Assembly: GCA_021773215.1 (NCBI GenBank)
Contig: JAJFKM010000074.1
Location: forward strand, 12,386 to 76,385
Length of the DNA: 64,000 bases
From: Gammaproteobacteria bacterium
Lineage (GTDB): Bacteria > Pseudomonadota > Gammaproteobacteria > Eutrophobiales > Eutrophobiaceae
Direction of reading: 5' to 3'
Shown here: one piece after another, positions 2,557 to 29,578 of the stretch
Layout of the letters: every line of letters starts with the position of its first letter
How positions within the stretch are numbered: position 1 is the first letter of the stretch
Made by a program: the position numbers and the translations under genes
The notes under the pieces: generated by a model
What the model saw: only the letters and a program-made list of their open reading frames with translations
The model's database searches: none
What the model was told of the DNA's origin: nothing

Positions 2557-3330
2557 ATGGACAAGCACATCAAATTTTTTGTTTTACCCTCAATCTTAGG
2601 TCTTGCGATTTTAAATACTTCTGTTGCAGAGACCACAACTCTGGATTCAGCAGTAGAAACTAAGCTGCAGTCCCAAAAAGATGTCGTAAAATCACAGAAC
2701 AAAGTGGACACGCTGGTCACTGAGACCAAAGACTTGGTTCAGGAATACCGTGATGCAATACGTAAGACTGATAGCCTAGGCACCTATAATGGCCAATTAT
2801 CAAAATTAATTAAGCAACAAAAAGTATCCTTGAATGCTATTAAGCGTCAACTTGACAATGTTGAAGAGACTCAACGAAACATTGTGCCTTTGATGATAAA
2901 GATGATTGATACATTAGGAAAATTTGTAGAACTTGATCTTCCCTTTTTAACTCAAGAACGCCAACAGCGTGTTGCAGATTTAAAAAGCATTATGGATCGT
3001 CCTGATGTAACCCTACCTGATAAATACCGTCGTATTATGGAAGCTTATCAAATAGAAATGGAATATGGCCGAACTATAGAAGCCTATTCTGACACGGTAG
3101 AAATAGATAGTCAGAAATACACCGTTGATGTTTTACGCGTTGGACGCCTGTTGATTAGCTTCCAAACACTGGATGGAAAGATGAGTGGCGTATGGAACAA
3201 GGAATCTAAGTCTTGGGAAAAACTTTCCTCTGAATATGACCGTTCTATTAAGCAAGGTATACAAATTGCAAAAAAGCAGGCACCACCTGAATTGATTAAA
3301 CTGCCTATCAATATGGCTGGAAAAGAATAA
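2557..3330 (+). CDS. DUF3450-type periplasmic coiled-coil protein of a TonB2 cluster (TtpB-like)
   Basis: It has a signal peptide and a coiled-coil-rich 257 aa. It is the first gene of the cluster, and its stop overlaps the next ATG (TAATG). Confidence 0.7.
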   Translation: MDKHIKFFVLPSILGLAILNTSVAETTTLDSAVETKLQSQKDVVKSQNKVDTLVTETKDLVQEYRDAIRKTDSLGTYNGQLSKLIKQQKVSLNAIKRQLDNVEETQRNIVPLMIKMIDTLGKFVELDLPFLTQERQQRVADLKSIMDRPDVTLPDKYRRIMEAYQIEMEYGRTIEAYSDTVEIDSQKYTVDVLRVGRLLISFQTLDGKMSGVWNKESKSWEKLSSEYDRSIKQGIQIAKKQAPPELIKLPINMAGKE

Positions 3331-4676
3331 TGAACAGATTAATATTTTTAAGCTTGCTCATCTTCCTGTCACCAGTTTCTGCTGATGAACCTAATGATTT
3401 ACAGTCACTGTTAGAACAAGTGAAAAAAGAACGTTCTCAAGAAAAAGAAGTTCTTTCGAAACGAGAGTCAAAATTTAAAAGCGCTCATAGCAAGCAAAAA
3501 GGGTTGTTAAGTAATGCGCTAAAAAAATTAGAGAATGAAGAAGCTCGCAGCACATCATTAAGAAAAAATTATGATACTTATGACCTTGAGATTACTAGAC
3601 AGAATGCAGTCTTAAAGGAAAAGATGGGAGCTCTCGGTGAACTTGATGGCATCGTCAAGCAAATAGCGGGAGATCTAGACGTCATAATTGATACCTCTCT
3701 CGTCTCAGCACAAAAACCCAATCGTGATGAAATACTTGATGTCTTAGCTAACCGTAAAGAATTACCTTCCCTAGAAGAATTGGAAGAGCTTTGGATTTTG
3801 GCTATGGATGAAATGGTCGAGTCAGGGAAAATTGTGACCTTCCCGGGAAAGATTGTCACCGCAGCCGGCAATGAGATTGAACAAAATGTAACACGCATTG
3901 GTGTTTTTAATGCTGTATCTGCGGGTCGTTTTTTAAGAAACTTACCTGAGACGGGTAAATTAATTGAACCTGGCAGACAACCTGGTCAACGTTTTTTAGA
4001 TATGGCACAAAATGTTGAAACTGCCAGTACCGGGATGCATGCATTTCCCATAGATCCAACACGCGGAGCGATGTTAGCCCTTTTGGTCCAAGTACCTGAT
4101 CTTAAAAATCGAATTGAACAAGGTGGTCTTGTTGGTTACGTTATTATATTCATCGGCCTGATTGGTGTTTTAATATCTTTAGAACGTTTAATACTATTAG
4201 TGACCACTAGTCGTAAAGTCAAAAAACAACTCAAGAGTAAAAAACCTGGCGACAACCCCTTAGGCCGTATTATGCAAGTCTATGAAAAGAACCCTGACAT
4301 TGATACTGAAACACTGGGACTGAAACTAGACGAAGCTATATTAAAAGAAATGCCTAGAATTCAACGTGGATTGGGAGCTCTTGCTTTACTTGCCGCTGTA
4401 TCCCCCCTACTTGGGTTACTTGGAACAGTAACGGGTATTATTGAAACATTTCAATCTATAACACTTTATGGAACTGGCGATCCACGTGTCATGTCTGGCG
4501 GTATTTCACAAGCCTTAGTCACAACAGTCATGGGGCTATTGGTTGCTATTCCCTTGTTGTTATCGCACAGTTTTCTTTCTTCTAAAAGTAATGCATTAAT
4601 TCAAATACTGGATGAGAAGAGTACAGCATTTGTTGCGTTACTCGCTGAGATAAACCGTATCAAGAATAATGTTTGA
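3330..4676 (+). CDS. Large MotA/TolQ/ExbB proton-channel protein (TtpC-like)
   Basis: 448 aa with a signal peptide and long coiled-coil N-terminal half. The C-terminal half carries the ExbB signature LLGLLGTVTGIIETF and three TM segments. Confidence 0.85.
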   Translation: MNRLIFLSLLIFLSPVSADEPNDLQSLLEQVKKERSQEKEVLSKRESKFKSAHSKQKGLLSNALKKLENEEARSTSLRKNYDTYDLEITRQNAVLKEKMGALGELDGIVKQIAGDLDVIIDTSLVSAQKPNRDEILDVLANRKELPSLEELEELWILAMDEMVESGKIVTFPGKIVTAAGNEIEQNVTRIGVFNAVSAGRFLRNLPETGKLIEPGRQPGQRFLDMAQNVETASTGMHAFPIDPTRGAMLALLVQVPDLKNRIEQGGLVGYVIIFIGLIGVLISLERLILLVTTSRKVKKQLKSKKPGDNPLGRIMQVYEKNPDIDTETLGLKLDEAILKEMPRIQRGLGALALLAAVSPLLGLLGTVTGIIETFQSITLYGTGDPRVMSGGISQALVTTVMGLLVAIPLLLSHSFLSSKSNALIQILDEKSTAFVALLAEINRIKNNV

Positions 4677-5184
4677 TCAAATAGACATCATGAGAGACTT
4701 CTTTGCTAAGGGCGGACCCGTCTTTACTGGCGTTTTTGTTTTATCAATATTTCTTTGGGCATTAATCATTGAGCGATATTATTTTATATATAAAGTTTAT
4801 CCAGTACGACTGGAAGCGATTGTTCAACAATGGCAAAAACGTCGTGAAAGGTCCTCATGGTTTGCGCTTAAAATCAGAGATGGTTTATTAAGCGAAATTT
4901 CAATCGAATTAAAACATAATCTGATCCCCATTCAGGCTTTGACGGGAATATTACCGTTACTTGGATTACTTGGTACTGTCACCGGAATGATTGCTATATT
5001 TGAGGTCTTAAACGTCTTTGGCAATGGCAACGCTCGCGGTATGGCAGAAGGCATATCCAGAGCACTATTACCAACAACAGCAGGCTTGGTGACTTCTATC
5101 ATTGGCATATACTTTAGCGCTGATCTCTATAAGCGGGCTAAAACGAAAGAGCTAATGGCTAAAGAACTACTAACACACAACTAA
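4669..5184 (+). CDS. exbB: ExbB/TolQ-family proton channel
   Basis: 171 aa with motif LPLLGLLGTVTGMIAIF and an 8-nt overlap with the upstream gene. Confidence 0.85.
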   Translation: MFDQIDIMRDFFAKGGPVFTGVFVLSIFLWALIIERYYFIYKVYPVRLEAIVQQWQKRRERSSWFALKIRDGLLSEISIELKHNLIPIQALTGILPLLGLLGTVTGMIAIFEVLNVFGNGNARGMAEGISRALLPTTAGLVTSIIGIYFSADLYKRAKTKELMAKELLTHN

Positions 5185-5186
5185 TT

Positions 5187-5591
5187 ATGAGACATACACA
5201 CACCAAGCATGAATCAGTTGCCGAAAGCGTTAATCTAACACCGCTTATCGACATGGTTTTTATCTTGTTGATATTTTTTCTTGTGACTGCATCTTTCACT
5301 AAAGAATCAGGAATTGATGTTGACCGTCCAACTGCACAGACAGCGGTCAGAGAAGAACAAGGCAGCATGATCATTGGCGTCAGTAAGGACGGTGAAATTT
5401 GGATCGACAGTCAAAAAGTTGATATGCGTGCTGTTCGTGCACATGTAGAACACTTGCACGCTCAAAATCCAGAAGGAACGGTCATCATCCTTGCTGATCA
5501 AAATGCGCGCACAGGAACGACGGTTGAGGTGCTTGATCAAGTTCGTTTGGCGGGTGTGACCAATGTGTCAATCGCAGCATCGAATGAATAA
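5187..5591 (+). CDS. exbD: ExbD/TolR biopolymer transport protein
   Basis: 134 aa. NLTPLIDMVFILLIFFLV carries the conserved TM Asp. The periplasmic domain is ExbD-like. Confidence 0.9.
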   Translation: MRHTHTKHESVAESVNLTPLIDMVFILLIFFLVTASFTKESGIDVDRPTAQTAVREEQGSMIIGVSKDGEIWIDSQKVDMRAVRAHVEHLHAQNPEGTVIILADQNARTGTTVEVLDQVRLAGVTNVSIAASNE

Positions 5592-5615
5592 TTAATTTTT
5601 CCCATTGTGTGAATC

Positions 5616-6308
5616 ATGCAATTTCCAAAACTGAATATTCTGGATACCGCGAAGATCCCGTCGGTAATTATTATTGCAATAGTTTTAAACATTGCAATTT
5701 TTATATTGATTCAGCAGTTGGTAAGCAACGAACACGCACTAGACTTAAACTTGTCTGATGTCAGCCTAGTAGAATTTATAAGACTGGAAAAACAACCAGA
5801 ACCACCCAAACCAAAAAAAGAAATTGATGAGATTGAGCCACCTCCTCTGGAAGAAGAGCCTCCTCCTCCAGAAATGGTTGAACCGCAAATAGAAAAACCT
5901 CAAACTATGCAAGCGGAACTATCTCCACCTAACATAAACATGCCTTTATCGCTATCAGGCACACCATACCTTGGTGACTTTGCGAAAAGCACAATAAAGG
6001 CCAAGCCCCGCAGTAAGCCATCAAGGCCTAAAATTGATACTAATGTAGTACCCACACTAAGAATCCCTCCTATCTATCCCCTACGCGCTTTGCGCAGTGG
6101 TATTCAAGGTGTTGTTACTGTCGAATTTACAATAGCAATTGATGGTTCAGTTAAAAATGCTGTCGTTGTAAAAGCTAAACCTCCTAAAATATTTGACAGT
6201 GCGGTTTTAAAAGCAATATCTAAATGGAAATACAACCCGGATATTATTGATGGAAAGCCAGTGGAAAAACGTGCGCGTCAAGACGTAAAATTTAAATTAA
6301 AACGATGA
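5616..6308 (+). CDS. tonB: TonB energy transducer
   Basis: It has an N-terminal TM, a Pro/Glu/Lys-rich spacer (EPPKPKKE...EPPPPE) and a TonB C-terminal domain (PIYPLRALRSGIQGVVTVEFTI...G). Confidence 0.9.
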   Translation: MQFPKLNILDTAKIPSVIIIAIVLNIAIFILIQQLVSNEHALDLNLSDVSLVEFIRLEKQPEPPKPKKEIDEIEPPPLEEEPPPPEMVEPQIEKPQTMQAELSPPNINMPLSLSGTPYLGDFAKSTIKAKPRSKPSRPKIDTNVVPTLRIPPIYPLRALRSGIQGVVTVEFTIAIDGSVKNAVVVKAKPPKIFDSAVLKAISKWKYNPDIIDGKPVEKRARQDVKFKLKR

Positions 6309-7543
6309 ACATATTTGCACAAAGACCAACATCAAAAAGCATTTTATTTATAATACTTGTGCTTTGCTGCAGTTCTCTCTTTGCTGAAGAAAAGAAGAAG
6401 ACTTATCAATTAGAGCCTAATGTGCATGCTGAACTAATTGGTATTCATCAACAAATTGATGAAGGACAAAATGGCGAAGCCCTAAAAAGGCTAAAGAAAT
6501 TAATCTCATCAAACAATCTTAAAGCTTATGATGCCGCCGTTGCTTATCAAACCATGGGCTTTGCTAAAAGCAATATGGGTGAGTTCAGTGATGCGGCAAA
6601 ACATTTCATCAAAGCATTATCTCTTGATGCTTTACCAGCAGATGTTACGCATGGCTTAAACTACTCTACCGCGCAGCTATTAATTCATATAGACAAAACA
6701 AAAGAGGGTTTAAAATACTTGTCAAAGTGGTTTGCTAAAGAACCTAAAGCGACGGGAGACGCACATATATTAGCTGCAACAGCTTATTATTATCTCAAAG
6801 ACTACAAACAACTTATCATCCATGTAGAAAAGGCGTTAGCTCTATCCGACAAGCCACCACTCAGCTGGTATGAACTGCTATTAGCTGGTTATTATGAGAT
6901 AAAAGAATATAAAAAGTCTGCCACACTACTTGAAACAATCATCAATAAGCACCCCAAAAAAACCAATTATTGGCTGCAACTAGCAGAGATTTACCAACGA
7001 CTGGAACAAAATAAAAAAGCCTTAGCTATTTATGAACTAGCCTATGCGAAAGGGTTGCTTAAAAAAGATGACATCAACCGTTTGATTAGTAACTATCTAT
7101 ATTTAGAAATGCCTTACAAGGCAGCTGTCATCCTTGAAAAGGAAATGGCTATTGGAGAGATTAACCCTGATATTAGAATGTTAACTCTACTCGCAGACAG
7201 TTGGCTACTTGCTCATGAAAATCAAAAAGCTGAACCTATATTTAAAGAAATCATTAAAAAATACAATGATGACCATACTCGGCTTCGATTAGGTCAACTT
7301 TATATTGAAGCTGAAGAATGGAAAAAGGTAGTTGAAGTGCTTGATGTTGAATTCAAGTCTGAAGGTAAGGTTTTATTGTCCAAAATTAACCTTCTCTTAG
7401 GTATTGCACAATATCATTCTAAAAATATGGACAAAGCAACACGGGCGTTTACACATGCATTATCTGACAAATCGACAGCAGAACAAGCTAGTTGGTGGTT
7501 GGATCATTTAAAGAATGAAACAACAAAAACACAAGACAGCTAA
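6305..7543 (+). CDS. TPR-repeat protein closing the TonB2 cluster (TtpD-like)
   Basis: It has a signal peptide and repeated TPR-like A/Y/L helices. ATGA overlap with tonB. Confidence 0.7.
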   Translation: MNIFAQRPTSKSILFIILVLCCSSLFAEEKKKTYQLEPNVHAELIGIHQQIDEGQNGEALKRLKKLISSNNLKAYDAAVAYQTMGFAKSNMGEFSDAAKHFIKALSLDALPADVTHGLNYSTAQLLIHIDKTKEGLKYLSKWFAKEPKATGDAHILAATAYYYLKDYKQLIIHVEKALALSDKPPLSWYELLLAGYYEIKEYKKSATLLETIINKHPKKTNYWLQLAEIYQRLEQNKKALAIYELAYAKGLLKKDDINRLISNYLYLEMPYKAAVILEKEMAIGEINPDIRMLTLLADSWLLAHENQKAEPIFKEIIKKYNDDHTRLRLGQLYIEAEEWKKVVEVLDVEFKSEGKVLLSKINLLLGIAQYHSKNMDKATRAFTHALSDKSTAEQASWWLDHLKNETTKTQDS

Positions 7544-7552
7544 GAAAGCACT

Positions 7553-8803
7553 TTATTGAAACGCTTCCAATACCTTAATTAATTCATTCGCAGTTTGTAT
7601 TCGATTATCCGGTTTCTTTGCTAGTAGAGAATCAACAGTATCCTGATATTGTTTCAACTTGCTTGGTAACTTTGGAATGGGTGCATGAATGTGCTGGTAG
7701 ATTAGCGAAGCAGCGGTTGCTGCGGTAAAAGGCTTATCTCCTGTAAGCAATTCATATAATATCACGCCTACACTATACATATCTGAGCGTGTATCAACGT
7801 CATTGCCCTCACCTTGTTCAGGACTCATATAATGGGGGGTGCCTAATATCTGCCCCACGGTCGTAATATCACTCACCTCATCTATTTTTTTTGAAATACC
7901 AAAATCTGCCAGCGCAAGACTGTCATCTCCACGAAACATAATATTGGCAGGCTTAAGATCTCTATGCACAACATTGATCGCATGAATTTGTGCAAGTCCA
8001 TAAGCAATATGAGTGGCATAGATAACAGCTATCTCATGATTTAAACCCAATTCGGCACGTTGTTTTAAATCACCGCGAGAAAAGAATTCCATTGCGATAT
8101 AGCCGTAATCTTCAGTTATTCCATGCTCAAAAATCTTAACGACGAATGGTGAGTTTAAACTGGCTATTAAATTTGCTTCCTGAATAAAGCGCGTCACTAG
8201 TTTAGGTTCATGTACTCGCGTCAAATCTAGTACTTTTAAAACAACCGTCATTTTGTCTGTTACACGTTCTGCCAAATAAACTTTTGACATTGCACCTTCA
8301 CCAATCATACGAACAAATTTATAACCAATATCTAAGCTGGTATCTGGTACTGCATCTTTCTTATGTACCTTCCTGATAAGCTGAGTGGCATCATTTATTT
8401 CATTTTCTTGATCTGTGTTTGAACGTTTTGAGAACTCAGTGGCTTCATCAACCATCTCTGCAATACGTTTCGGTTTGATATCAACCTTATTGATGTAATC
8501 AGCTGCACCTAATTTAATTGATTTAACAGCGATATATTCATCACCTTCAGCAGTAAGCACAATCGTCGGTGGAAATCCGGGCTTATCTCTGAACTCTTTA
8601 AGCCACTGTAAGCCATCTTCATCGGGACCTAACTTGTAGTCCAAAAATAATATGTCGTATTGGAACCACTGGAAATTATCAGGTGGCTTGCCGAGATTAT
8701 CAAAATCATATTCGATGACTTCTACATCTTTCAGTTCTTTATTCAGGTATAGCTTGAGTAATGCCCTGAAATCGCTGGAATCATCGATTATTAAAATTTT
8801 CAT
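7553..8803 (-). CDS. Receiver domain fused to Hanks-type Ser/Thr protein kinase
   Basis: REC residues are intact: DD (ILIIDDS), acceptor Asp in LFLDYKL, T in VLTAEG, K in YINK. Kinase motifs are intact: GEGAMSKV, VVLKVL, HRDLKPANIM, DFGISK, GTPHYMSPEQ. Confidence 0.9.
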   Translation of the reverse strand: MKILIIDDSSDFRALLKLYLNKELKDVEVIEYDFDNLGKPPDNFQWFQYDILFLDYKLGPDEDGLQWLKEFRDKPGFPPTIVLTAEGDEYIAVKSIKLGAADYINKVDIKPKRIAEMVDEATEFSKRSNTDQENEINDATQLIRKVHKKDAVPDTSLDIGYKFVRMIGEGAMSKVYLAERVTDKMTVVLKVLDLTRVHEPKLVTRFIQEANLIASLNSPFVVKIFEHGITEDYGYIAMEFFSRGDLKQRAELGLNHEIAVIYATHIAYGLAQIHAINVVHRDLKPANIMFRGDDSLALADFGISKKIDEVSDITTVGQILGTPHYMSPEQGEGNDVDTRSDMYSVGVILYELLTGDKPFTAATAASLIYQHIHAPIPKLPSKLKQYQDTVDSLLAKKPDNRIQTANELIKVLEAFQ

Positions 8804-17720: not shown

Positions 17721-18092
17721 ATGAAACGAATACTATTAAGTCTCTTACTACTGAATATCTCTTTACCTGTTTATGCTGGCTATGTGAATGGGAATAAACT
17801 ATTGAATGATTGCAGAGGAGCGCTAACGCTTGATGATGGTCGTGAGGTTACCAGAAAGGAAATAGCAAAATCCGGAATATGTATCGGGTATATCATGGCA
17901 GTAAATGATGACCATGACATTCATGTGGCATGGGGAACGATGGAGGAAAAATATTGTGTGCCGGATAGTGCCGCTCCAGATGAGTTAATTAATATCGTGG
18001 TGAAGTATATGGAAGCCAATCAAGAGCTATTACATTCTAATGCTGCTGGTCTAGTAAATAATTCACTCTATGTAGCCTTTCCTTGTAAGTAA
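17721..18092 (+). CDS. Secreted Rap1a/Tai4-like small protein (putative orphan T6SS immunity-family protein)
   Basis: It has a signal peptide followed by the pattern GN.L...C ... C.GY..AV.D ... YC.P......L...VVKY.E.N.E..H..AA.LV...L..AFPC. I recall this as the Rap1a/Tai4 family signature. Confidence 0.5.
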   Translation: MKRILLSLLLLNISLPVYAGYVNGNKLLNDCRGALTLDDGREVTRKEIAKSGICIGYIMAVNDDHDIHVAWGTMEEKYCVPDSAAPDELINIVVKYMEANQELLHSNAAGLVNNSLYVAFPCK

Positions 18093-24330: not shown

Positions 24331-24891
24331 ATGCGCCATTTTCTTTGCCTTACTTCATTATTCATAGTCAGTCTCTCTGTCATGACTTCAGCATATGCTA
24401 ATGAGTATCAATTATTGGTTTCAAAGAAGAATAACGAGCTTATTGTTGAAAAATCCGGGCAGATAGTAAAAAAATATCATATTGCCAGTGGTAAAGGCGG
24501 CAAGGGTACCAAGCGCTTGCGTGGTGATAGTAAAACACCTTTAGGCATGTATCGAGTAGCCAGTGTTAAAGAAAGCAGCCGCTTTCATTTCTTCATTCAG
24601 TTAGATTATCCAAACTTGATAGATGCCTGGTACGGCTATAAGAATGAAATTATTGATGCAAATAATTTTAAACGTATCGCTACGGCTTACAAAAAGCGCG
24701 AAGCGCCTCCACAAGACACTGAATTAGGTGGCTTCATTGGAATACATGGCTTGGGTATTACTAACGAAGAAAAATTAAATATTCATGAGTCCTTCAATTG
24801 GACTGAAGGTTGTATTGCCTTAACCAATGAAGAAATAAATGACCTGAAAAAATTTGTCGCCATTGGCACACAAGTCATCATCAGAGAATAA
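24331..24891 (+). CDS. L,D-transpeptidase (YkuD) family protein
   Basis: The signal peptide MRHFLCLTSLFIVSLSVMTSAYA begins at the ATG at 24331. The catalytic motif is IGIHGLG...NWTEGCIAL. The track start at 24250 adds an unlikely N-terminal extension. Confidence 0.8.
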   Translation: MRHFLCLTSLFIVSLSVMTSAYANEYQLLVSKKNNELIVEKSGQIVKKYHIASGKGGKGTKRLRGDSKTPLGMYRVASVKESSRFHFFIQLDYPNLIDAWYGYKNEIIDANNFKRIATAYKKREAPPQDTELGGFIGIHGLGITNEEKLNIHESFNWTEGCIALTNEEINDLKKFVAIGTQVIIRE

Positions 24892-25441
24892 TCAGCCGGT
24901 GCCAAACAAAAATCAACTATGTCTGTCCGCTAATTTTCTAGTCATACAATTTTCTAATGTAAAACTTATCAGATTATCGACGCAGCTAATTACGCTGTGT
25001 TTTTTTGTATTCCTGTTTGGCTGTTCAAATGAAACTGATCAGATCTATGAAAAAACGACTCAAAAATCATTTCAAGATGTCTTGCAGGACGCCGAATTTG
25101 CTATAACAGAAAATAACTTTCGTATCACAAATCGTCTTCATATAGGTAAGGCAATACAGGAACGCGGTAATACCGATTTCCCACAAAATGAGATTATTCT
25201 ATTCTGCAATCTGGAAATAGCGGAAGACATGCTAAAAATTGAACCTCGTTATATTAATTATTGTCCATACAAGATAACTGTCACAGACTCAGGCGGTACT
25301 GTCACCATCGGTACACGTCTTTTACCGTACATAACAGATAACCCAGAAATGGACAATATCTCTAAATACATAAATACAATTCTAAACTCGATGGTAGAAT
25401 ATGCAGCATCAGAAGACCCATTTATACTTGACGATAATTGA
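24854..25441 (+). CDS. DUF302 domain lipoprotein (start codon uncertain)
   Basis: Lipobox FLFGC follows KLIRLSTQLITLCFFVF. The core is DUF302-like (FQDVLQDAEFAITENNFRITN...ILFCN...YCPYKITV). No ATG/GTG/TTG lies near the signal peptide; the only one in frame is the TTG at 24854. Confidence 0.6.
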   Translation: MSPLAHKSSSENNQPVPNKNQLCLSANFLVIQFSNVKLIRLSTQLITLCFFVFLFGCSNETDQIYEKTTQKSFQDVLQDAEFAITENNFRITNRLHIGKAIQERGNTDFPQNEIILFCNLEIAEDMLKIEPRYINYCPYKITVTDSGGTVTIGTRLLPYITDNPEMDNISKYINTILNSMVEYAASEDPFILDDN

Positions 25442-25456
25442 AGGGCACAAACATAA

Positions 25457-26200
25457 ATGAAAGAACATCCGGAACATAGTCTTTTACTGCGCTGGCTCAT
25501 TTTGACTGGCCTTATCGCATTTTCTTTAATAGTTGCCTGGAATGAAGGCATCATTTCCTCATTATTCAGCGTCGATCAAAGCAATATTTGCTGGGTAATC
25601 GCATTGGCATACCTATTAGTCACACTGCATTGCGCGAGAAGAATATATACGCTTTCATTACAAACAAATCTATCTGTGGAAGTTGATGGCATTATTAAAA
25701 ATGAAGAGAAACTTGATTTAACGATAAATGACGAAGAAGTCATGATTAATTCAAAAGTTAAGCTGCCCGATTGCTTCATGACAGAATATATTAGAGATCT
25801 CCACTATCGGTATAACAATAAAAATAACTCCGAAGACTCCGGCTCATCTACTGATTTAATAGATGTTTATGAATCACGTTTAAAAGGTCCTCAGGAAATT
25901 GGCTGGTTCGTTTCCGATATGATGTTAAAACTGGGGCTGCTCGGCACGATCATCGGCTTTATATTTATGCTGGGTTCCGTCGCCAATATTGCTGATTTCG
26001 ATGTTAGTGGTATGCAAAAGATATTGAAGCACATGAGTAATGGTATGGGCACCGCTCTATATACAACACTCGCGGGATTGACCTGCAGTATTTTATCGGC
26101 AACTCAATATCATATGCTGGATAGACATGCCGATGAGCTGATTGAATTAACGCGTCATCTGACACAAGTCCATGTCATTCCGAAGATCACAGGGAATTAA
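25457..26200 (+). CDS. MotA/TolQ/ExbB-family proton channel, divergent orphan type
   Basis: 247 aa. The C-terminal TM pair carries the family signature KLGLLGTIIGFIFML ... GMGTALYTTLAGLTCSI. The N-terminal half has extra TM segments and an Asn/Ser-rich loop. Confidence 0.75.
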   Translation: MKEHPEHSLLLRWLILTGLIAFSLIVAWNEGIISSLFSVDQSNICWVIALAYLLVTLHCARRIYTLSLQTNLSVEVDGIIKNEEKLDLTINDEEVMINSKVKLPDCFMTEYIRDLHYRYNNKNNSEDSGSSTDLIDVYESRLKGPQEIGWFVSDMMLKLGLLGTIIGFIFMLGSVANIADFDVSGMQKILKHMSNGMGTALYTTLAGLTCSILSATQYHMLDRHADELIELTRHLTQVHVIPKITGN

Positions 26201-26206
26201 TTAGCG

Positions 26207-26800
26207 ATGAGCGTTAAAGATCGTCTTCGTTCAGACCCGTTCACAGACTTGCTCTTTAATGCGCTTCTGGGCTTTACCTTTCTGTTTCTGGTTGCAATCA
26301 TGTTTATGAATCCAGAAGCAAAGTCAGGCATCATTGACCCCAAAGCAGAATACATAATCACGATAACCTGGGAAGACAATAGTCCCGATGATGTGGATAC
26401 ATGGGTGGAAGATCCGGAAGGTCAGATATTGTGGTTTAGAACACCTGAAGCCGGTTTACTACATTTGGATCGTGATGATCGTGGCTTGGTCAATGACACA
26501 ATTACTATAGCTGGGGAAGAAGTCCAAAACCCACTAAATCAAGAAGTTGTTACACTTCGTGGTGTCGTAAAAGGTGAATATATCGTCAATCTACATTATT
26601 ACGCCTCTGAAACAGGCACACCCGTTGACGTAAATGTGAGGTTGGTCAAGGTAAATCCAAAGCTGGAAGTTATATACTATGGCACGGTTAACCTTGAAAA
26701 GAGGGGCGATGAGAAAACAGCTGTACGATTTAAGATTGGCGGTGATGGTGACGTATACGGCATAAACTTTCTGCCAAAAAATCTTGTTGAGCTTGGTTAA
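26207..26800 (+). CDS. Single-TM protein in ExbD/TolR position with unrelated periplasmic domain
   Basis: DPFTDLLFNALLGFTFLFLVAIMFM places Asp14 (nt 26246-26248) at the cytoplasmic edge of the TM, as LIDMVF does in the ExbD at 5187. The remaining ~160 aa is beta-rich (ITITWEDNSPDDVDTWVEDPEG...GEYIVNLHYY) and not ExbD-like. Confidence 0.5.
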   Translation: MSVKDRLRSDPFTDLLFNALLGFTFLFLVAIMFMNPEAKSGIIDPKAEYIITITWEDNSPDDVDTWVEDPEGQILWFRTPEAGLLHLDRDDRGLVNDTITIAGEEVQNPLNQEVVTLRGVVKGEYIVNLHYYASETGTPVDVNVRLVKVNPKLEVIYYGTVNLEKRGDEKTAVRFKIGGDGDVYGINFLPKNLVELG

Positions 26801-26826
26801 ATAATAAAAATACTGGAGAAAAAACT

Positions 26827-27339
26827 GTGATATTGGGTATAACCGGGATAATTTCAGCTTATATATTGATAGGCTTACTATTACTTAGCATAAACCTTTA
26901 TTCAAGATGGTCTTGGAAGGTTAAGGCCGCAAGCATAATCATTACATCAGCATTTTATGTTGTAACGTATTTTTCCTTTCCACCATTACTCGGTTGGCCA
27001 ACTTCTGAAAATTTACCCCCACAATTTCGTTTGATATCTGCCCATGTTGAGCAACCAAACAAAGAAACCGGCAAAGAAGGTTCCATTTATCTATGGCTAT
27101 CTGAAATAGAAAATATGTCTAGCGCATCTGAACCAAGGGCATATGAATTAGCCTATTCAAATGAGTTACACGAAAAGATTATTAATGTTAAAGCCAAGCT
27201 CGATAAAGATATAGCTCAGTTGGGTGAATTTAAAGATCCTGATGAAACAATGGATCAAGTGCAAGAACAAAGACGTGGTGTAAAATCGGTTCATATTGAA
27301 TTTTATGATTTACCTGACCCACTCTTCCCAGATAAGTAG
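26827..27339 (+). CDS. Small membrane protein, two N-terminal TM segments, no recognisable family
   Basis: GTG start preceded by ggag. Two hydrophobic helices are followed by a charged soluble tail. It is 26 nt from the upstream gene and 14 nt from the downstream gene. Confidence 0.5.
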   Translation: MILGITGIISAYILIGLLLLSINLYSRWSWKVKAASIIITSAFYVVTYFSFPPLLGWPTSENLPPQFRLISAHVEQPNKETGKEGSIYLWLSEIENMSSASEPRAYELAYSNELHEKIINVKAKLDKDIAQLGEFKDPDETMDQVQEQRRGVKSVHIEFYDLPDPLFPDK

Positions 27340-27353
27340 GAGGCAATAAATAA

Positions 27354-28856
27354 TTGAATAGAAACATTACGTCTCTATTATTCTTTTTAACTCTATCGGC
27401 ATATTCCGGATACGTAACTGCGTGGAATACATTAACTGATAATCTTGATGTCAGTTGTCAGCAGTCAGAGACTGTTCTCAACTGTACATACCGCCCCCTA
27501 GCTTCTGGAACAACACCTGATATCTTAGCAAAATCAAATGGTGCTAATCTTGAAGTAATCAAAATAAGCCAATACCCCGGAGCTGGCGATACAAACGCCA
27601 TCTTATTCCTAGTCGATACTAGTGATCCTAAAAGACAGAATGTTATTGAACAAAACAGATCACATATAAAAGAACTCTTAACATTCCTAGGTCCACATAA
27701 TAAAGTTGGGCTGGCATCGTTTGACAAATCTATACAATTTTTATCTCCAGTAGGATCATCAAGATTTTTACTATCGAAATCTATAGACACATTAAACGCT
27801 ACTGGAAAAACAACAGAGTTATATCGCAACCTCATTAAAGCTATTGACCACCTAAAGTCATTTAATGCAGATAGAAAAGTAATTACTTTAATGTCTGATG
27901 GTCAGGCAGAAGATAAGGCTTACTTTCATTCTGATGTCATTAAATCAGCAAGAAAATATGGAGTGATCATAAATTCTATAGGATATCCAAGATCAATTTC
28001 ATTATCCGTTTCTTTGCAAACCATTAGACGCTTAAGCGAAGAAACTGGCGGCAGTTACATTGAGACTGATATGAGTTATGGACTTCCATCAAACCAGTTA
28101 AAACCTTTGATGAATAATGTGGATAATGGTGGCGCGTTCTCTGTTGAATTAGAACCTCTGTCTCAGACTAGTCCTGCTCCCAAAAAAATAACGCTGTCCT
28201 TCAAGGATGCTAATGAAACAGAAAATATAAGCGTGCCTGTACGAATAAAATCAATTGAAAAGCCTGTTCAGAGACAACCCAGCGTCATTATTCCTGAAGT
28301 TGTGAATCCTGATAAAGTAAGCCCTGAAAACAACCTGCCAATTCAGATTGTAACTAAACAAGCAGACAATCAAGCAATCAATTTATGGCTTTGGTACGGG
28401 CTCCCTGCTGCTTTTATCATCATCATCATATTTATATTAATTACATTATTTTTGTTGTGGAATCGTCGTCCTGAAACGAAGATTATTTCAGACAGTAATT
28501 ATAAGCCCTATGCTTATTTAATTGCCGGTGATGGTAGTGAGACCCGATACCCAATAACACGTACAATTTGGCGAATAGGTCGAAGCAAAGATAATGAATT
28601 AACTTTGAATGACACCTCACTCTCCCGGCGTCATGCTGAAATTCACAGAAACAGCAATGGTACTTTCGATATTATTGACATGAACTCAATGAACGGCGTC
28701 TATATTAATAACGAAAAGATTGGAAAGGCGGAATTACATGAGGGCGATGTTCTTGAGATCGGGGATATCTTTCTACACTTCACACAGCTAGCTTCTGATT
28801 ATTCACTTGAAGAATCAACCGTCATGCAAAAAACAAAAGTACCTATCACGCACTAA
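27354..28856 (+). CDS. Signal peptide - vWA domain - TM - FHA domain protein
   Basis: AGGAGG sits 10 nt before the TTG start. vWA motifs are ILFLVDTSDP, ATGKTTELY and ITLMSDGQAED. The TM is LWLWYGLPAAFIIIIIFILITLFLLW. The FHA core is WRIGRSKDNELTLNDTSLSRRHAEI...NSMNGVYINNEKI. Confidence 0.8.
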   Translation: MNRNITSLLFFLTLSAYSGYVTAWNTLTDNLDVSCQQSETVLNCTYRPLASGTTPDILAKSNGANLEVIKISQYPGAGDTNAILFLVDTSDPKRQNVIEQNRSHIKELLTFLGPHNKVGLASFDKSIQFLSPVGSSRFLLSKSIDTLNATGKTTELYRNLIKAIDHLKSFNADRKVITLMSDGQAEDKAYFHSDVIKSARKYGVIINSIGYPRSISLSVSLQTIRRLSEETGGSYIETDMSYGLPSNQLKPLMNNVDNGGAFSVELEPLSQTSPAPKKITLSFKDANETENISVPVRIKSIEKPVQRQPSVIIPEVVNPDKVSPENNLPIQIVTKQADNQAINLWLWYGLPAAFIIIIIFILITLFLLWNRRPETKIISDSNYKPYAYLIAGDGSETRYPITRTIWRIGRSKDNELTLNDTSLSRRHAEIHRNSNGTFDIIDMNSMNGVYINNEKIGKAELHEGDVLEIGDIFLHFTQLASDYSLEESTVMQKTKVPITH

Positions 28857-28864
28857 TCATTTAG

Positions 28865-29578
28865 TCAGATTATAGGACTGGTTAATTTAATATAATCATC
28901 GATTAGCTTTGTCATGTCTGATTCATCTAACAAAGCTTTATCCTCGCCAAACCATTCTTGTTTGTTCTCAATAATTAACCTCGATATATTTATTGCGACG
29001 ACTTTCCCTTTGTCATTTTTACATTGCTCGGAGGCATTAACTAATAATGATGTGGCTGCTCCCATTACAACTTCTCTATGTTTTTGTAATACCGCATCTA
29101 ATCCCACCTCTGTATGAATATGACTATTCTGCACAGGTTTAATAGTTTGAATAACAAAGGCTATTAATGCACTAAATTCATCAGGAACCGATATTCGACT
29201 AACCATCGCCCAGCGATATAAATCAATAGGTAAAACCTCCCATTTGTCAGCTGAATTATCGAGATTTACAACTGATAGTAGTTTTTTATGAACACATTCC
29301 TGCGCATGTTTCCATAGTTCTTCTGTCTTATCTGAAACATCGTCACCAGATTCATTAGTATCCGGATTTATTCCAAATAATAATGGGATCCCTTCTTGCT
29401 GGAGTAACCAGTTATCCTTGCATATCCATTTTTCATATAATTTTTGCAGTCTTAAGTGGTCTTCATCATAGACATTTCTTTCACGTTCACTCATCGTCAT
29501 TTCTGCAGGAGCTTCCGCTACTGATACTTCTTTATCAATGCCAAATAATGATGTTTTAATTTTATTAATAATATTCAT
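28865..29578 (-). CDS. Hypothetical protein, no recognisable motif
   Basis: A 237-aa ORF lying 15 nt downstream of the DUF455 gene on the same strand. It converges on the vWA-FHA gene with an 8-nt gap. Confidence 0.5.
   Translation of the reverse strand: MNIINKIKTSLFGIDKEVSVAEAPAEMTMSERERNVYDEDHLRLQKLYEKWICKDNWLLQQEGIPLLFGINPDTNESGDDVSDKTEELWKHAQECVHKKLLSVVNLDNSADKWEVLPIDLYRWAMVSRISVPDEFSALIAFVIQTIKPVQNSHIHTEVGLDAVLQKHREVVMGAATSLLVNASEQCKNDKGKVVAINISRLIIENKQEWFGEDKALLDESDMTKLIDDYIKLTSPII

Follow-up and report, generated by a model that had tools for sequence, protein, structure and literature searches.

Does a gene for a MotA/ExbB-type channel protein that stands beside a gene for a vWA/FHA membrane protein belong to a single four-gene machine, and which of the genes form the conserved unit? 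This question is raised by a cassette at positions 25457-28856 of a 64,000-nucleotide stretch of DNA (hereafter the window, which supplies all coordinates unless another locus is named; contig JAJFKM010000074.1, positions 12,386 to 76,385) from a gammaproteobacterium of the Eutrophobiaceae. A first-pass annotation, made from the sequence alone, had described four closely spaced same-strand genes with these domains, and the listing of open reading frames (ORFs) in the window and the Pfam matches bore out the coordinates, gaps, and domains. The genes, here called g1 to g4, all lie on the + strand and are separated by 6, 26, and 14 nt:

25457-26200, + strand: g1, 247 aa, ATG start
26207-26800, + strand: g2, 197 aa, ATG start
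26827-27339, + strand: g3, 170 aa, GTG start
27354-28856, + strand: g4, 500 aa, TTG start

Comparison with other genomes showed that the conserved unit is the g1-g2-g3 triad, not the tetrad, and that g4 is a lineage-specific accessory outside this unit. We consider it reasonably likely that a widespread membrane module of three components, g1-g2-g3, has been elaborated in this lineage to give the cassette, with a motor, with g3 as transducer, and with a link through g4 to phosphothreonine (pThr) signaling.

A one-genome-per-species scan with a nine-sequence g2 alignment gave at least 533 confirmed loci. The best 80 were kept; their g2 proteins were 62-98% identical to that of the window and came from Gammaproteobacteria, Alphaproteobacteria, and one Nitrospirae metagenome-assembled genome. 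Gene presence in these 80 loci was scored by tblastn with the window proteins, and presence and absence in this study were taken from tblastn and hidden Markov model (HMM) searches; cluster maps were not used for this, because in high-GC loci some antisense ORFs had displaced true genes. Two genes directly upstream of the cassette and on the same strand, which the first-pass annotation had left unmentioned, were conserved alongside it in the species loci:

24331-24891, + strand: YkuD-fold (L,D-transpeptidase family) protein, putatively periplasmic (Pfam YkuD, E 1.7e-17; N-terminal signal-like hydrophobic segment)
24854-25441, + strand: DUF302 protein with a lipoprotein-like signal (LFGC) (Pfam DUF302, E 1.5e-10; mechanical ORF start)

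The YkuD gene is probably the first gene of the operon. The DUF302 gene, whose true start probably lies about 100 nt downstream of the mechanical one, stops 15 nt upstream of g1. The counts over the species loci were as follows:

g1 upstream of g2: 79/80 loci, the miss being a contig end
g3 downstream of g2: 79/80 loci, the miss being a contig end
g4 after g3: 43/80 loci, with about four further loci uninformative (contig ends)
ykuD upstream: 60/80 loci
DUF302: 46/80 loci

g4 was absent from about 33 informative loci. The order found in the window, ykuD-DUF302-g1-g2-g3-g4, was accompanied by a second arrangement, ykuD-g1-g2-g3 followed by opposite-strand genes, and by a third, found in Alphaproteobacteria, Nitrospirae, and Thiodiazotropha symbionts, in which g1-g2-g3 is followed by one or more lipoproteins of about 235 aa. 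These lipoproteins occupy the place of g4, and 11 of 12 matched Pfam DUF3108_like. Alphaproteobacterial loci carried two or three paralogs of this DUF3108-like lipoprotein behind g3 (L061, 7123-9965; L068, L079). Distant g2 homologs, on a Desulfobacterales chromosome and on other contigs, again lay between a MotA_ExbB gene and a g3 homolog, and a cultured bacterium, Methylohalomonas lacus, carried ykuD-g1-g2-g3 with no g4 (locus L048). The g2 family as a whole comprised 4,795 matches in a 90%-clustered database and, in an exhaustive scan at E <= 1e-3, 1,805 clusters at 50% identity with full-length conservation.

The triad was not confined to bacterial chromosomes. A distant g2 homolog was found on contigs of about 49 kb with terminase, Gp80, and primase genes, and a scan of IMG/VR yielded 208 viral contigs that encode a g2 relative. 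Eighty of these were kept (L086-L165), with g2 38-49% identical to that of the window. HMMs from our own alignments recovered the order g1-g2-g3, usually with overlapping genes, on all 80 kept contigs; g1 was detected on 78 (the two misses being contig ends) and g3 on 80/80, and neither g4 nor the DUF3108-like lipoprotein was found on any (0/80). The triad-bearing contigs showed many unrelated gene-order backbones. Their recurrent neighbors were genes for the terminase large subunit, a head-maturation (ClpP-like) protease, DNA primase, a sigma factor, and an ERCC4 nuclease, together with GDP-mannose 4,6-dehydratase, IMPDH/GMP reductase, a family-9 glycosyltransferase, and a trypsin-like peptidase. 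A g2 homolog was also encoded in 29 Rhizobium/Sinorhizobium phage records (some of them GenBank/RefSeq duplicates), including RHph_N3_19, RHph_I1_18, P10VF, and the temperate phage 16-3 (L166, L167, L248, L249). In RHph_N3_19 and RHph_I1_18, g2 was flanked by a minimal g1 of 113-147 aa (HMM E 6e-9 and 2e-6) and by a two-transmembrane (TM) g3-like protein with a weak HMM match (E 8e-4 at best). The phage triad genes were annotated as "hypothetical protein" or, in 16-3, bore the uninformative tags p039-p042, and none of the three proteins matched a PHROG family. Of the four-family order that the first-pass annotation had put up for comparison between genomes, the part concerning g1-g2-g3 stood, and the part concerning g4 did not. 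The role and novelty of the vWA/FHA coupling had been overestimated, and the conserved and widely phage-borne entity, the triad, had been missed.

Such carriage invites the view that the triad is in essence a module of phages or of conflict, which might serve superinfection exclusion, takeover of the envelope, the timing of lysis, or Zorya-like defense or counter-defense, and that its chromosomal copies were domesticated. The viral contigs speak for this view, genes for terminase, protease, primase, and sigma factors accompanying the triad on all 80 examined, as do the lipopolysaccharide or sugar-modifying genes near viral triads, the cultured rhizobiophage records, and the ZorA models that are the best defense-database matches of g1. 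However, housekeeping genes (tilS, accA, dnaE) surround the window locus in a synteny that is stable in many species, and its base composition showed no anomaly. Furthermore, the ZorA matches were confined to the shared channel helices and fell far below the family cut-offs, no ZorC/D or other effector was found, and g2, g3, and g4 matched nothing in PADLOC. We regard this origin as quite unlikely.

Several further features of the phage loci were observed. Three unrelated phage groups had a gene for a periplasmic trypsin-like serine protease no more than a few kb from the triad (L248, 3211-4110, which is 16-3 p036; L166, 6740-7432; and IMG/VR cluster 15, for example L151, 4012-4890). Directly downstream of g3, the members of one large phage group (L092-L097, L112, L134, L141, L158, and others) carried a GDP-mannose 4,6-dehydratase gene, and in another (L082, L151), the triad lay near a family-9 (heptosyl)transferase gene and an MreB/Volactin-like gene; these surface-polysaccharide and cytoskeleton neighbors might point to envelope remodeling. 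In RHph_I1_18, an annotated vWA-domain gene was located about 1.8 kb downstream of the triad, past a tRNA cluster (L167, 6233-7438), possibly by coincidence.

If the triad is the conserved unit, is it a motor? Over residues 158-230, the g1 protein matched Pfam MotA_ExbB (PF01618) at E 8.4e-10, scoring 38.9 bits where the cut-off is 22.9, and precomputed PF01618 matches were also present on the g1 homologs of loci L081-L084. It has four hydrophobic segments and a poorly conserved loop at residues 63-148. The channel helices were delimited by the Pfam match region and by invariant alignment columns:

25928-26146, + strand: MotA_ExbB channel helices of g1, residues 158-230 (KLGLLGTIIGF ... GMGTALYTTLAGL)

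Residue conservation was read from an alignment of 167 homologs, the best one of each locus (83 cellular and 84 viral). Gly163, Thr164, and Gly167 of g1 were kept in 160/160 aligned homologs and Thr204 in 161/161, and position 203 was Thr or Ser. We take these conserved Thr and Gly residues, on the basis of established knowledge and the Pfam alignment rather than of a structure, to be the positions of the Thr ring in the lumen of TolQ/ExbB. g1 fitted no TolQ, ExbB, MotA, PomA, or ZorA equivalog or subfamily model of NCBIfam at cut-off; its sole NCBIfam matches were ZorA models, scoring 12-15 bits where the cut-offs are 100-500, and its profile reached the solved MotA chains in the PDB only at E 0.2. 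By these results, g1 is a divergent channel subunit of the MotA/ExbB/TolQ superfamily, predicted to form a pentamer.

The g2 protein matched no family in Pfam, NCBIfam, PADLOC, or PHROG. In its AlphaFold2 (AF2) model (pLDDT 79), a linker of low confidence joined a single TM helix (residues 11-33) to an all-beta domain (residues 49-187). By hhalign, the segment PFTDLLF of g2 fell on PLIDMVF of the ExbD encoded elsewhere in the window, the segment with the essential Asp, at E 0.0025 over 17 columns, which singles out the following residue:

26246-26248, + strand: codon of g2 Asp14, candidate ion-binding residue (Asp in 166/167 homologs; aligned by hhalign to the Asp segment of the window ExbD)

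The periplasmic part of g2 was of another kind than that of known B subunits. PF02472 (ExbD/TolR) did not match g2 and matched 2/44 homologs weakly (best E 0.0051), and no OmpA/MotB-type peptidoglycan-binding domain was matched in g2. Compared by hhalign, the g2 family profile was similar to the DUF2135 domain of Escherichia coli YfaP (89% probability, E 2.3e-6, 84 columns), and the Pfam DUF2135 model was matched by 0/44 g2-family members at E <= 0.1. By profile comparison, the domain is a distant DUF2135 relative and not a member by Pfam criteria; the label "YfaP" that JGI gives to some g2 homologs arises from this similarity. Within the domain, W55, D62, D64, D90, D91, and E113 were about 100% conserved in the 167 homologs. 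Structural searches added little: the single g2 sequence found nothing in the PDB, and its profile gave weak PPC/subtilisin jelly-roll matches at E >= 0.05; Foldseek of the model against the PDB returned generic beta-sandwiches (best E 0.012, nothing at E <= 0.001), and against BFVD, its top matches were unnamed viral proteins (E 3e-4 to 1e-3), which were uninformative. The Foldseek TM-scores of g2, and likewise of g3, were depressed because the full-length models combine a TM helix with a soluble domain. Together, sequence and model suggest that g2 is a B-subunit analogue in which an N-terminal transpore-type helix with Asp14 is joined to a periplasmic DUF2135-like beta-sandwich.

The third protein, g3, comprises a two-TM hairpin, a domain of about 115 residues, and a conserved C-terminal FYDLPDPLFPEK tail, which was conserved in bacteria and partly in phages. 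The AF2 model (pLDDT 75) showed the TM hairpin followed by a small mixed alpha/beta domain, for which Foldseek found no fold match in the PDB (nothing at E <= 0.001). No family of Pfam, NCBIfam, PADLOC, or PHROG was matched, and all g3 homologs were annotated as "hypothetical". In the 167-locus alignment, G56 was invariant, P103 and R104 were more than 95% conserved, and W57 was also conserved. The TM segments contained no conserved His and no SHLS motif, and there was no Pfam TonB_C match. Because the loop joining the two helices is basic, the positive-inside rule would put both termini, and with them the C-terminal domain, in the periplasm. g3 forms a family of its own and is the obligate third component of the triad. 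In locus L042, tandem g3 paralogs, two in a row, were observed (2952-3476, 3497-4015). The earlier description of the triad proteins, namely a stator-like pair outside the characterized subfamilies, Asp14 in the single helix of g2, a g2 periplasmic region unlike that of ExbD, and a g3 of no recognizable family, agreed with all of these results.

In MotAB, ExbBD, and TolQR, the B helix carries an Asp close to its cytoplasmic end, and this Asp, facing a Thr ring of the A pentamer, makes up the ion-coupling core. The alignments indicate that this core is conserved in g1 and g2, and the triad is very probably a motor-like module. The contrary view would be that g1 and g2 form a passive channel or a structural membrane complex in which the Asp and Thr residues serve some other purpose, and the extreme divergence of g1 from solved motors and the phage g1 proteins of down to 113 aa would be consistent with it. 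However, the pair of ion-coupling elements (an Asp where the B helix ends on the cytoplasmic side, and the Thr of the G-T motif in the A helices) was near-totally conserved despite the strong divergence, and the contrary view seems highly improbable to us.

How, then, does g4 relate to the motor-like triad? Its domains were assigned as follows:

27600-28049, + strand: vWA domain of g4, residues 83-232 (Pfam VWA, PF00092, E 2.6e-8, 34.7 bits against a cut-off of 23.8)
28401-28457, + strand: TM helix of g4, residues 350-368 (one strong hydrophobic helix, with no conserved His/SHLS or Asp)
28569-28763, + strand: FHA domain of g4, residues 406-470 (Pfam FHA, PF00498, E 5.9e-20, 71.9 bits against a cut-off of 20.7)

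The protein begins with an N-terminal signal-like segment, and a Cys pair was invariant in 17 homologs. In the metal ion-dependent adhesion site (MIDAS) of the vWA domain, D88, S90, T154, and D182 were invariant and the second Ser was replaced (DTSDP) in all 17 aligned homologs, so that four of the five positions are kept. The FHA domain begins about 25-35 residues past the TM helix; its R410, S424, R425, H427, N447, and G448 were invariant in the same homologs, and Arg, Ser, His, and Asn are the usual pThr-contact residues. The C-terminal 20 or so residues of g4 (about 28797-28853) form a conserved tail behind the FHA domain, with the consensus E-x-T-V-M-Q-x-T-x-x-P and two conserved Thr residues; this tail could be a phospho-acceptor or an intramolecular ligand of the FHA domain.

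A reverse test was then performed, in which metagenome contigs were scanned for g4 relatives and the neighbors were checked with HMMs:

24 metagenome loci: close g4 relatives with the full ykuD-(DUF302)-g1-g2-g3 upstream
5 metagenome loci (L185, L186, L213, L228, L231): ykuD-DUF302-g3-g4, without g1 or g2
2 metagenome loci (L182, L212): ykuD immediately before g4
About 14 metagenome loci: g4 relatives of 26-36% identity with at least 2 kb of upstream DNA and without the triad

All close g4 relatives with sufficient upstream DNA carried the triad or at least g3. The five loci that retain g3 and g4 without g1 and g2 argue for a g3-g4 link, and YkuD also adjoined g4 where g1 and g2 were missing, which suggests that the tie of g4 to YkuD and g3 is no weaker than its tie to the motor. 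Among 88 ORFs neighboring the distant g4 relatives, there were FHA (14), PP2C/SpoIIE (8), and Pkinase (4) proteins and no motor, indicating that g4 is one of a family of vWA-TM-FHA receptors whose usual partners are Ser/Thr kinases and phosphatases; in one lineage, it has come to stand with YkuD, g3, and the motor.

These data bear on two opposite accounts of the cassette. The first-pass annotation had proposed that the four genes are one obligate machine, in which a motor that runs on the proton-motive force (PMF) remodels or senses a vWA-ligand bond and the FHA domain reports the state to pThr signaling, or the reverse. The common strand and tight spacing, the position of g4 directly behind g3 in 43/80 loci, and the company of the triad or g3 around close g4 relatives would agree with such a machine; so would the short distance of about 25-35 residues between the TM helix and the FHA domain, and there are precedents in vWA proteins driven by TolQR-like motors and in a juxtamembrane FHA domain predicted to sit on a motor pentamer. 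However, g4 is missing beside the triad on every phage contig and in about half of the bacterial loci, motor-less g4-type proteins exist, and g4 has an incomplete MIDAS and a TM helix with neither the SHLS/His motor-binding motif nor a channel Asp. An obligate machine, together with the proposal that the force on a vWA-ligand bond is reported to pThr signaling, is unlikely.

At the other extreme, the locus would hold two independent modules that are merely adjacent, an envelope-sensing unit of YkuD, DUF302, and g4 and a mobile triad that was inserted between these genes in an ancestor of the clade, with no functional coupling. The ykuD-g4 adjacency without a triad (L182, L212), the triads without ykuD and g4 in Alphaproteobacteria, Nitrospirae, Desulfobacterales, and phages, and the evident mobility of the triad on many unrelated phage backbones favor this separation, but it does not readily explain why the six-gene order is kept where g4 is just 31-84% identical to that of the window, or why ykuD stands immediately before g1 in many g4-less loci. 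In addition, it is g3 in particular that the ykuD-DUF302-g3-g4 loci keep, and this would be difficult to account for if g3 were linked neither to g4 nor to YkuD. Complete independence also seems improbable, and we lean, on balance, toward a functional coupling of g4 to the motor module in the lineage of the window.

The reading that we prefer, a motor-like triad elaborated in this lineage by g4, can be put as a model. g1 would form a MotA/ExbB-type pentameric ion channel, in the lumen of which the N-terminal helices of a g2 dimer would lie with Asp14 directed toward the g1 Thr ring; ion flow would make the complex turn or cycle, like other 5:2 motors. The DUF2135-like sandwich of g2, with its invariant acidic cluster, would stand in place of the peptidoglycan- or TonB-binding domains of MotB, TolR, and ExbD, and together with the periplasmic domain of g3, it would provide output or anchoring elements. 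g3 would carry the motor output into the periplasm, in a role like that of TonB or TolA and without homology to either. In the lineage of the window, the envelope context would be set by the YkuD-fold enzyme and the DUF302 lipoprotein upstream and by g4 downstream, and g4 probably connects the motor or envelope state to pThr signaling, or acts in the reverse direction. The persistence of g3-g4 pairs in loci that lack g1 and g2 makes g3 the most likely route of this link. We infer from these considerations a 5:2 stoichiometry, ion coupling, a transducer role of g3, a g3-g4 or g1-g4 contact, and a peptidoglycan-related role. The conserved neighbors (YkuD, the DUF302 and DUF3108-like lipoproteins, and the vWA domain) are by prediction all exported or membrane proteins, and the triad may have an envelope role. 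Any specific output, such as peptidoglycan remodeling, adhesion sensing, or a phage-related function, is doubtful at this stage. A broader version holds the triad to be a self-sufficient, previously undescribed branch of the 5:2 motors, with a DUF2135-like output domain on the B subunit and a hairpin-type transducer (g3) that are peculiar to it. Phages would act with it on the host envelope during infection (exclusion, counter-defense, or release), and this lineage would have wired it to a vWA/FHA receptor and a YkuD-fold peptidoglycan enzyme, joining the motor output to pThr signaling; we consider this version possible, with some reservation.

Several points weigh against the preferred reading and should be kept in view. 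On the side of the motor, g1 is strongly divergent from solved motors (E 0.2), the alignment of g2 with ExbD spans 17 columns, the 5:2 complex of g1 and g2 is predicted from sequence features, and the g2 and g3 models had no significant structural neighbors in Foldseek that would hint at a function. On the side of g4, about half of the bacterial loci and all phage contigs have the triad without it; phage carriage speaks for a basic role of the triad that requires neither g4 nor YkuD, and the ykuD-g4-only loci imply that g4 may belong with YkuD and not with the motor. Co-transcription of the cassette is suggested by its spacing, and promoter and terminator scans of the locus gave counts near shuffled expectation, which were uninformative. 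Finally, the kinase of the window, described below, is 18.5 kb distant, and no synteny connects it to g4.

The surroundings of the cassette were also inspected. A TonB2 system at 2557-7543, already noted in the first-pass annotation and borne out here, encodes DUF3450, a TtpC-like MotA_ExbB protein, ExbB, ExbD, TonB_C, and TPR proteins. The cassette as a recent duplicate of this system was ruled out, as the first-pass annotation had held: BLASTP comparisons gave E 0.13 (g1 against the window ExbB) and 23. The remaining observations in the window were as follows:

7553-8803, - strand: fusion of a receiver domain (Response_reg, E 6.7e-15) with a Ser/Thr kinase of the Hanks type (Pkinase, E 2.3e-48), convergent to the gene that ends the TonB2 cluster
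17721-18092, + strand: Rap1a-family immunity protein of a type VI secretion system (T6SS) (Pfam, E 6.6e-17), with no T6SS genes among its annotated neighbors
28865-29578, - strand: 237-aa ORF convergent with g4, the stops being 8 nt apart; found at the same position in 25/80 related loci, with no match in Pfam or NCBIfam

The presence of the receiver-kinase fusion makes pThr ligands plausible in the source organism, and this protein is a possible source of ligands for the FHA domain of g4.

The 5:2 ion-driven motors (MotAB, ExbBD, TolQR, GldLM, and ZorAB) are an active field in which every newly characterized branch has brought a distinct cellular function. The branch described here is large: the g2 family forms 1,805 clusters at 50% identity and is present in at least 533 species genomes as well as on no fewer than 208 viral contigs, and two of the three proteins have no Pfam, NCBIfam, or PHROG model. 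A PMF motor encoded by a phage would be an unusual viral gene, and the presence of the triad in tractable cultured phages (Rhizobium phage 16-3) and in M. lacus makes its function directly testable. The putative, lineage-specific association with g4 would offer a possible route from a periplasmic motor to Ser/Thr phospho-signaling.

Which known systems does this module resemble? We found no published description or family model of g2, g3, or the triad, although our coverage of the literature was incomplete and an earlier description is possible. A survey of MotAB proteins groups such proteins merely as "generic ion transporters" (PMC12505986), and g2, g3, and the phage-borne triad are described neither there nor in the study of vWA transducers considered below (PMC12204202). 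The triad resembles ExbB-ExbD-TonB and TolQ-TolR-TolA, both 5:2 PMF motors in which a third subunit transduces force; they share with the triad an A subunit of the superfamily with the channel-helix Thr, a B subunit with a single N-terminal helix bearing Asp, and a third small inner-membrane protein with a periplasmic domain encoded directly downstream, in a tight A-B-C order. In contrast, g1 fits no equivalog of TolQ or ExbB, and g2 has a DUF2135-like beta-sandwich and not the ExbD/TolR fold. Unlike TonB and TolA, g3 has a two-TM hairpin and lacks the SHLS/His motif, the Pro-rich spacer, and a TonB_C or TolA_III domain. TonB-dependent transporters, Pal, and TolB are not found near the triad as partners, and the triad also occurs in phages.

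Like g1 and g2, ZorA and ZorB are a non-flagellar MotAB-type pair, and the defense-database matches of g1 were exclusively ZorA models. However, the long ZorA tail and the peptidoglycan-binding domain of ZorB are absent from g1 and g2, there is no ZorC/D/E, and the locus is not a defense island. Zorya and other known defense systems were rejected as an identity of the cassette: the PADLOC ZorA matches to g1 residues 85-236 (approximately) were sub-threshold, at E >= 6e-6, and g2 to g4 had none. E. coli YfaP, encoded in the operon of the alpha-2-macroglobulin gene yfaS, shares the W..D.D..V.DP.G motif of DUF2135 with the g2 domain, but it has no fused motor-type Asp helix and no MotA/ExbB neighbor genes, and the likeness gives no functional transfer.

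For g4, the first-pass annotation had stated that no known motor is paired with a vWA/FHA protein, a view now outdated by the vWA transducers and by the Agl-Glt machinery, in which GltG bears an FHA domain and CglB a vWA domain. A 2025 study in Mol Biol Evol proposed that TolQ(R)-like motors drive vWA proteins of two classes (PMC12204202). In class 1, the force transducers have an N-terminal TM helix with SHLS/His, a linker, and a C-terminal vWA domain; in class 2, an Asp-bearing transpore helix is followed by the vWA domain, seemingly replacing TolR, with no tolR/exbD-like gene nearby and usually in heterologous pairs (PMC12204202). These proteins are like g4 in that a vWA membrane protein stands beside a non-canonical MotA/TolQ-type motor, for which PMF-to-periplasm coupling was proposed. 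g4 differs in its type-I layout (signal peptide, vWA, TM, cytoplasmic FHA), and an FHA domain is not reported for the published classes. Class 1 was rejected for g4 because the vWA domain precedes the TM helix and the helix has no conserved His, and class 2 because the TM helix lies on the C-terminal side of the vWA domain and lacks a conserved Asp, a separate B subunit (g2) is present, and there is a single vWA gene.

The Agl-Glt machinery of Myxococcus resembles the cassette in combining a TolQR-like motor with the juxtamembrane cytoplasmic FHA domain and TM helix of GltG, predicted to dock on the AglR pentamer, and its vWA adhesin CglB, at the far end of the machine, recalls the vWA domain of g4. 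However, FHA and vWA are there on separate proteins, in a complex of at least 17 proteins (AglRQS, GltG/GltJ, CglB), and GltG has the opposite orientation, with the FHA domain N-terminal and a TonB_C-like domain in the periplasm. The NCBIfam GltG match of g4 covered the FHA domain only, at 53 bits against a cut-off of 650, and Glt homologs were not present at the locus. The last comparison is with the pThr pathway of T6SS (PpkA with its periplasmic vWA domain, PppA, and Fha1). No T6SS genes and no adjacent kinase or phosphatase are present at the locus, and g4 has no kinase domain; what the two have in common is that FHA-mediated pThr signaling is linked across the membrane to a vWA domain in the periplasm, and in g4 a single chain unites the vWA and FHA domains.

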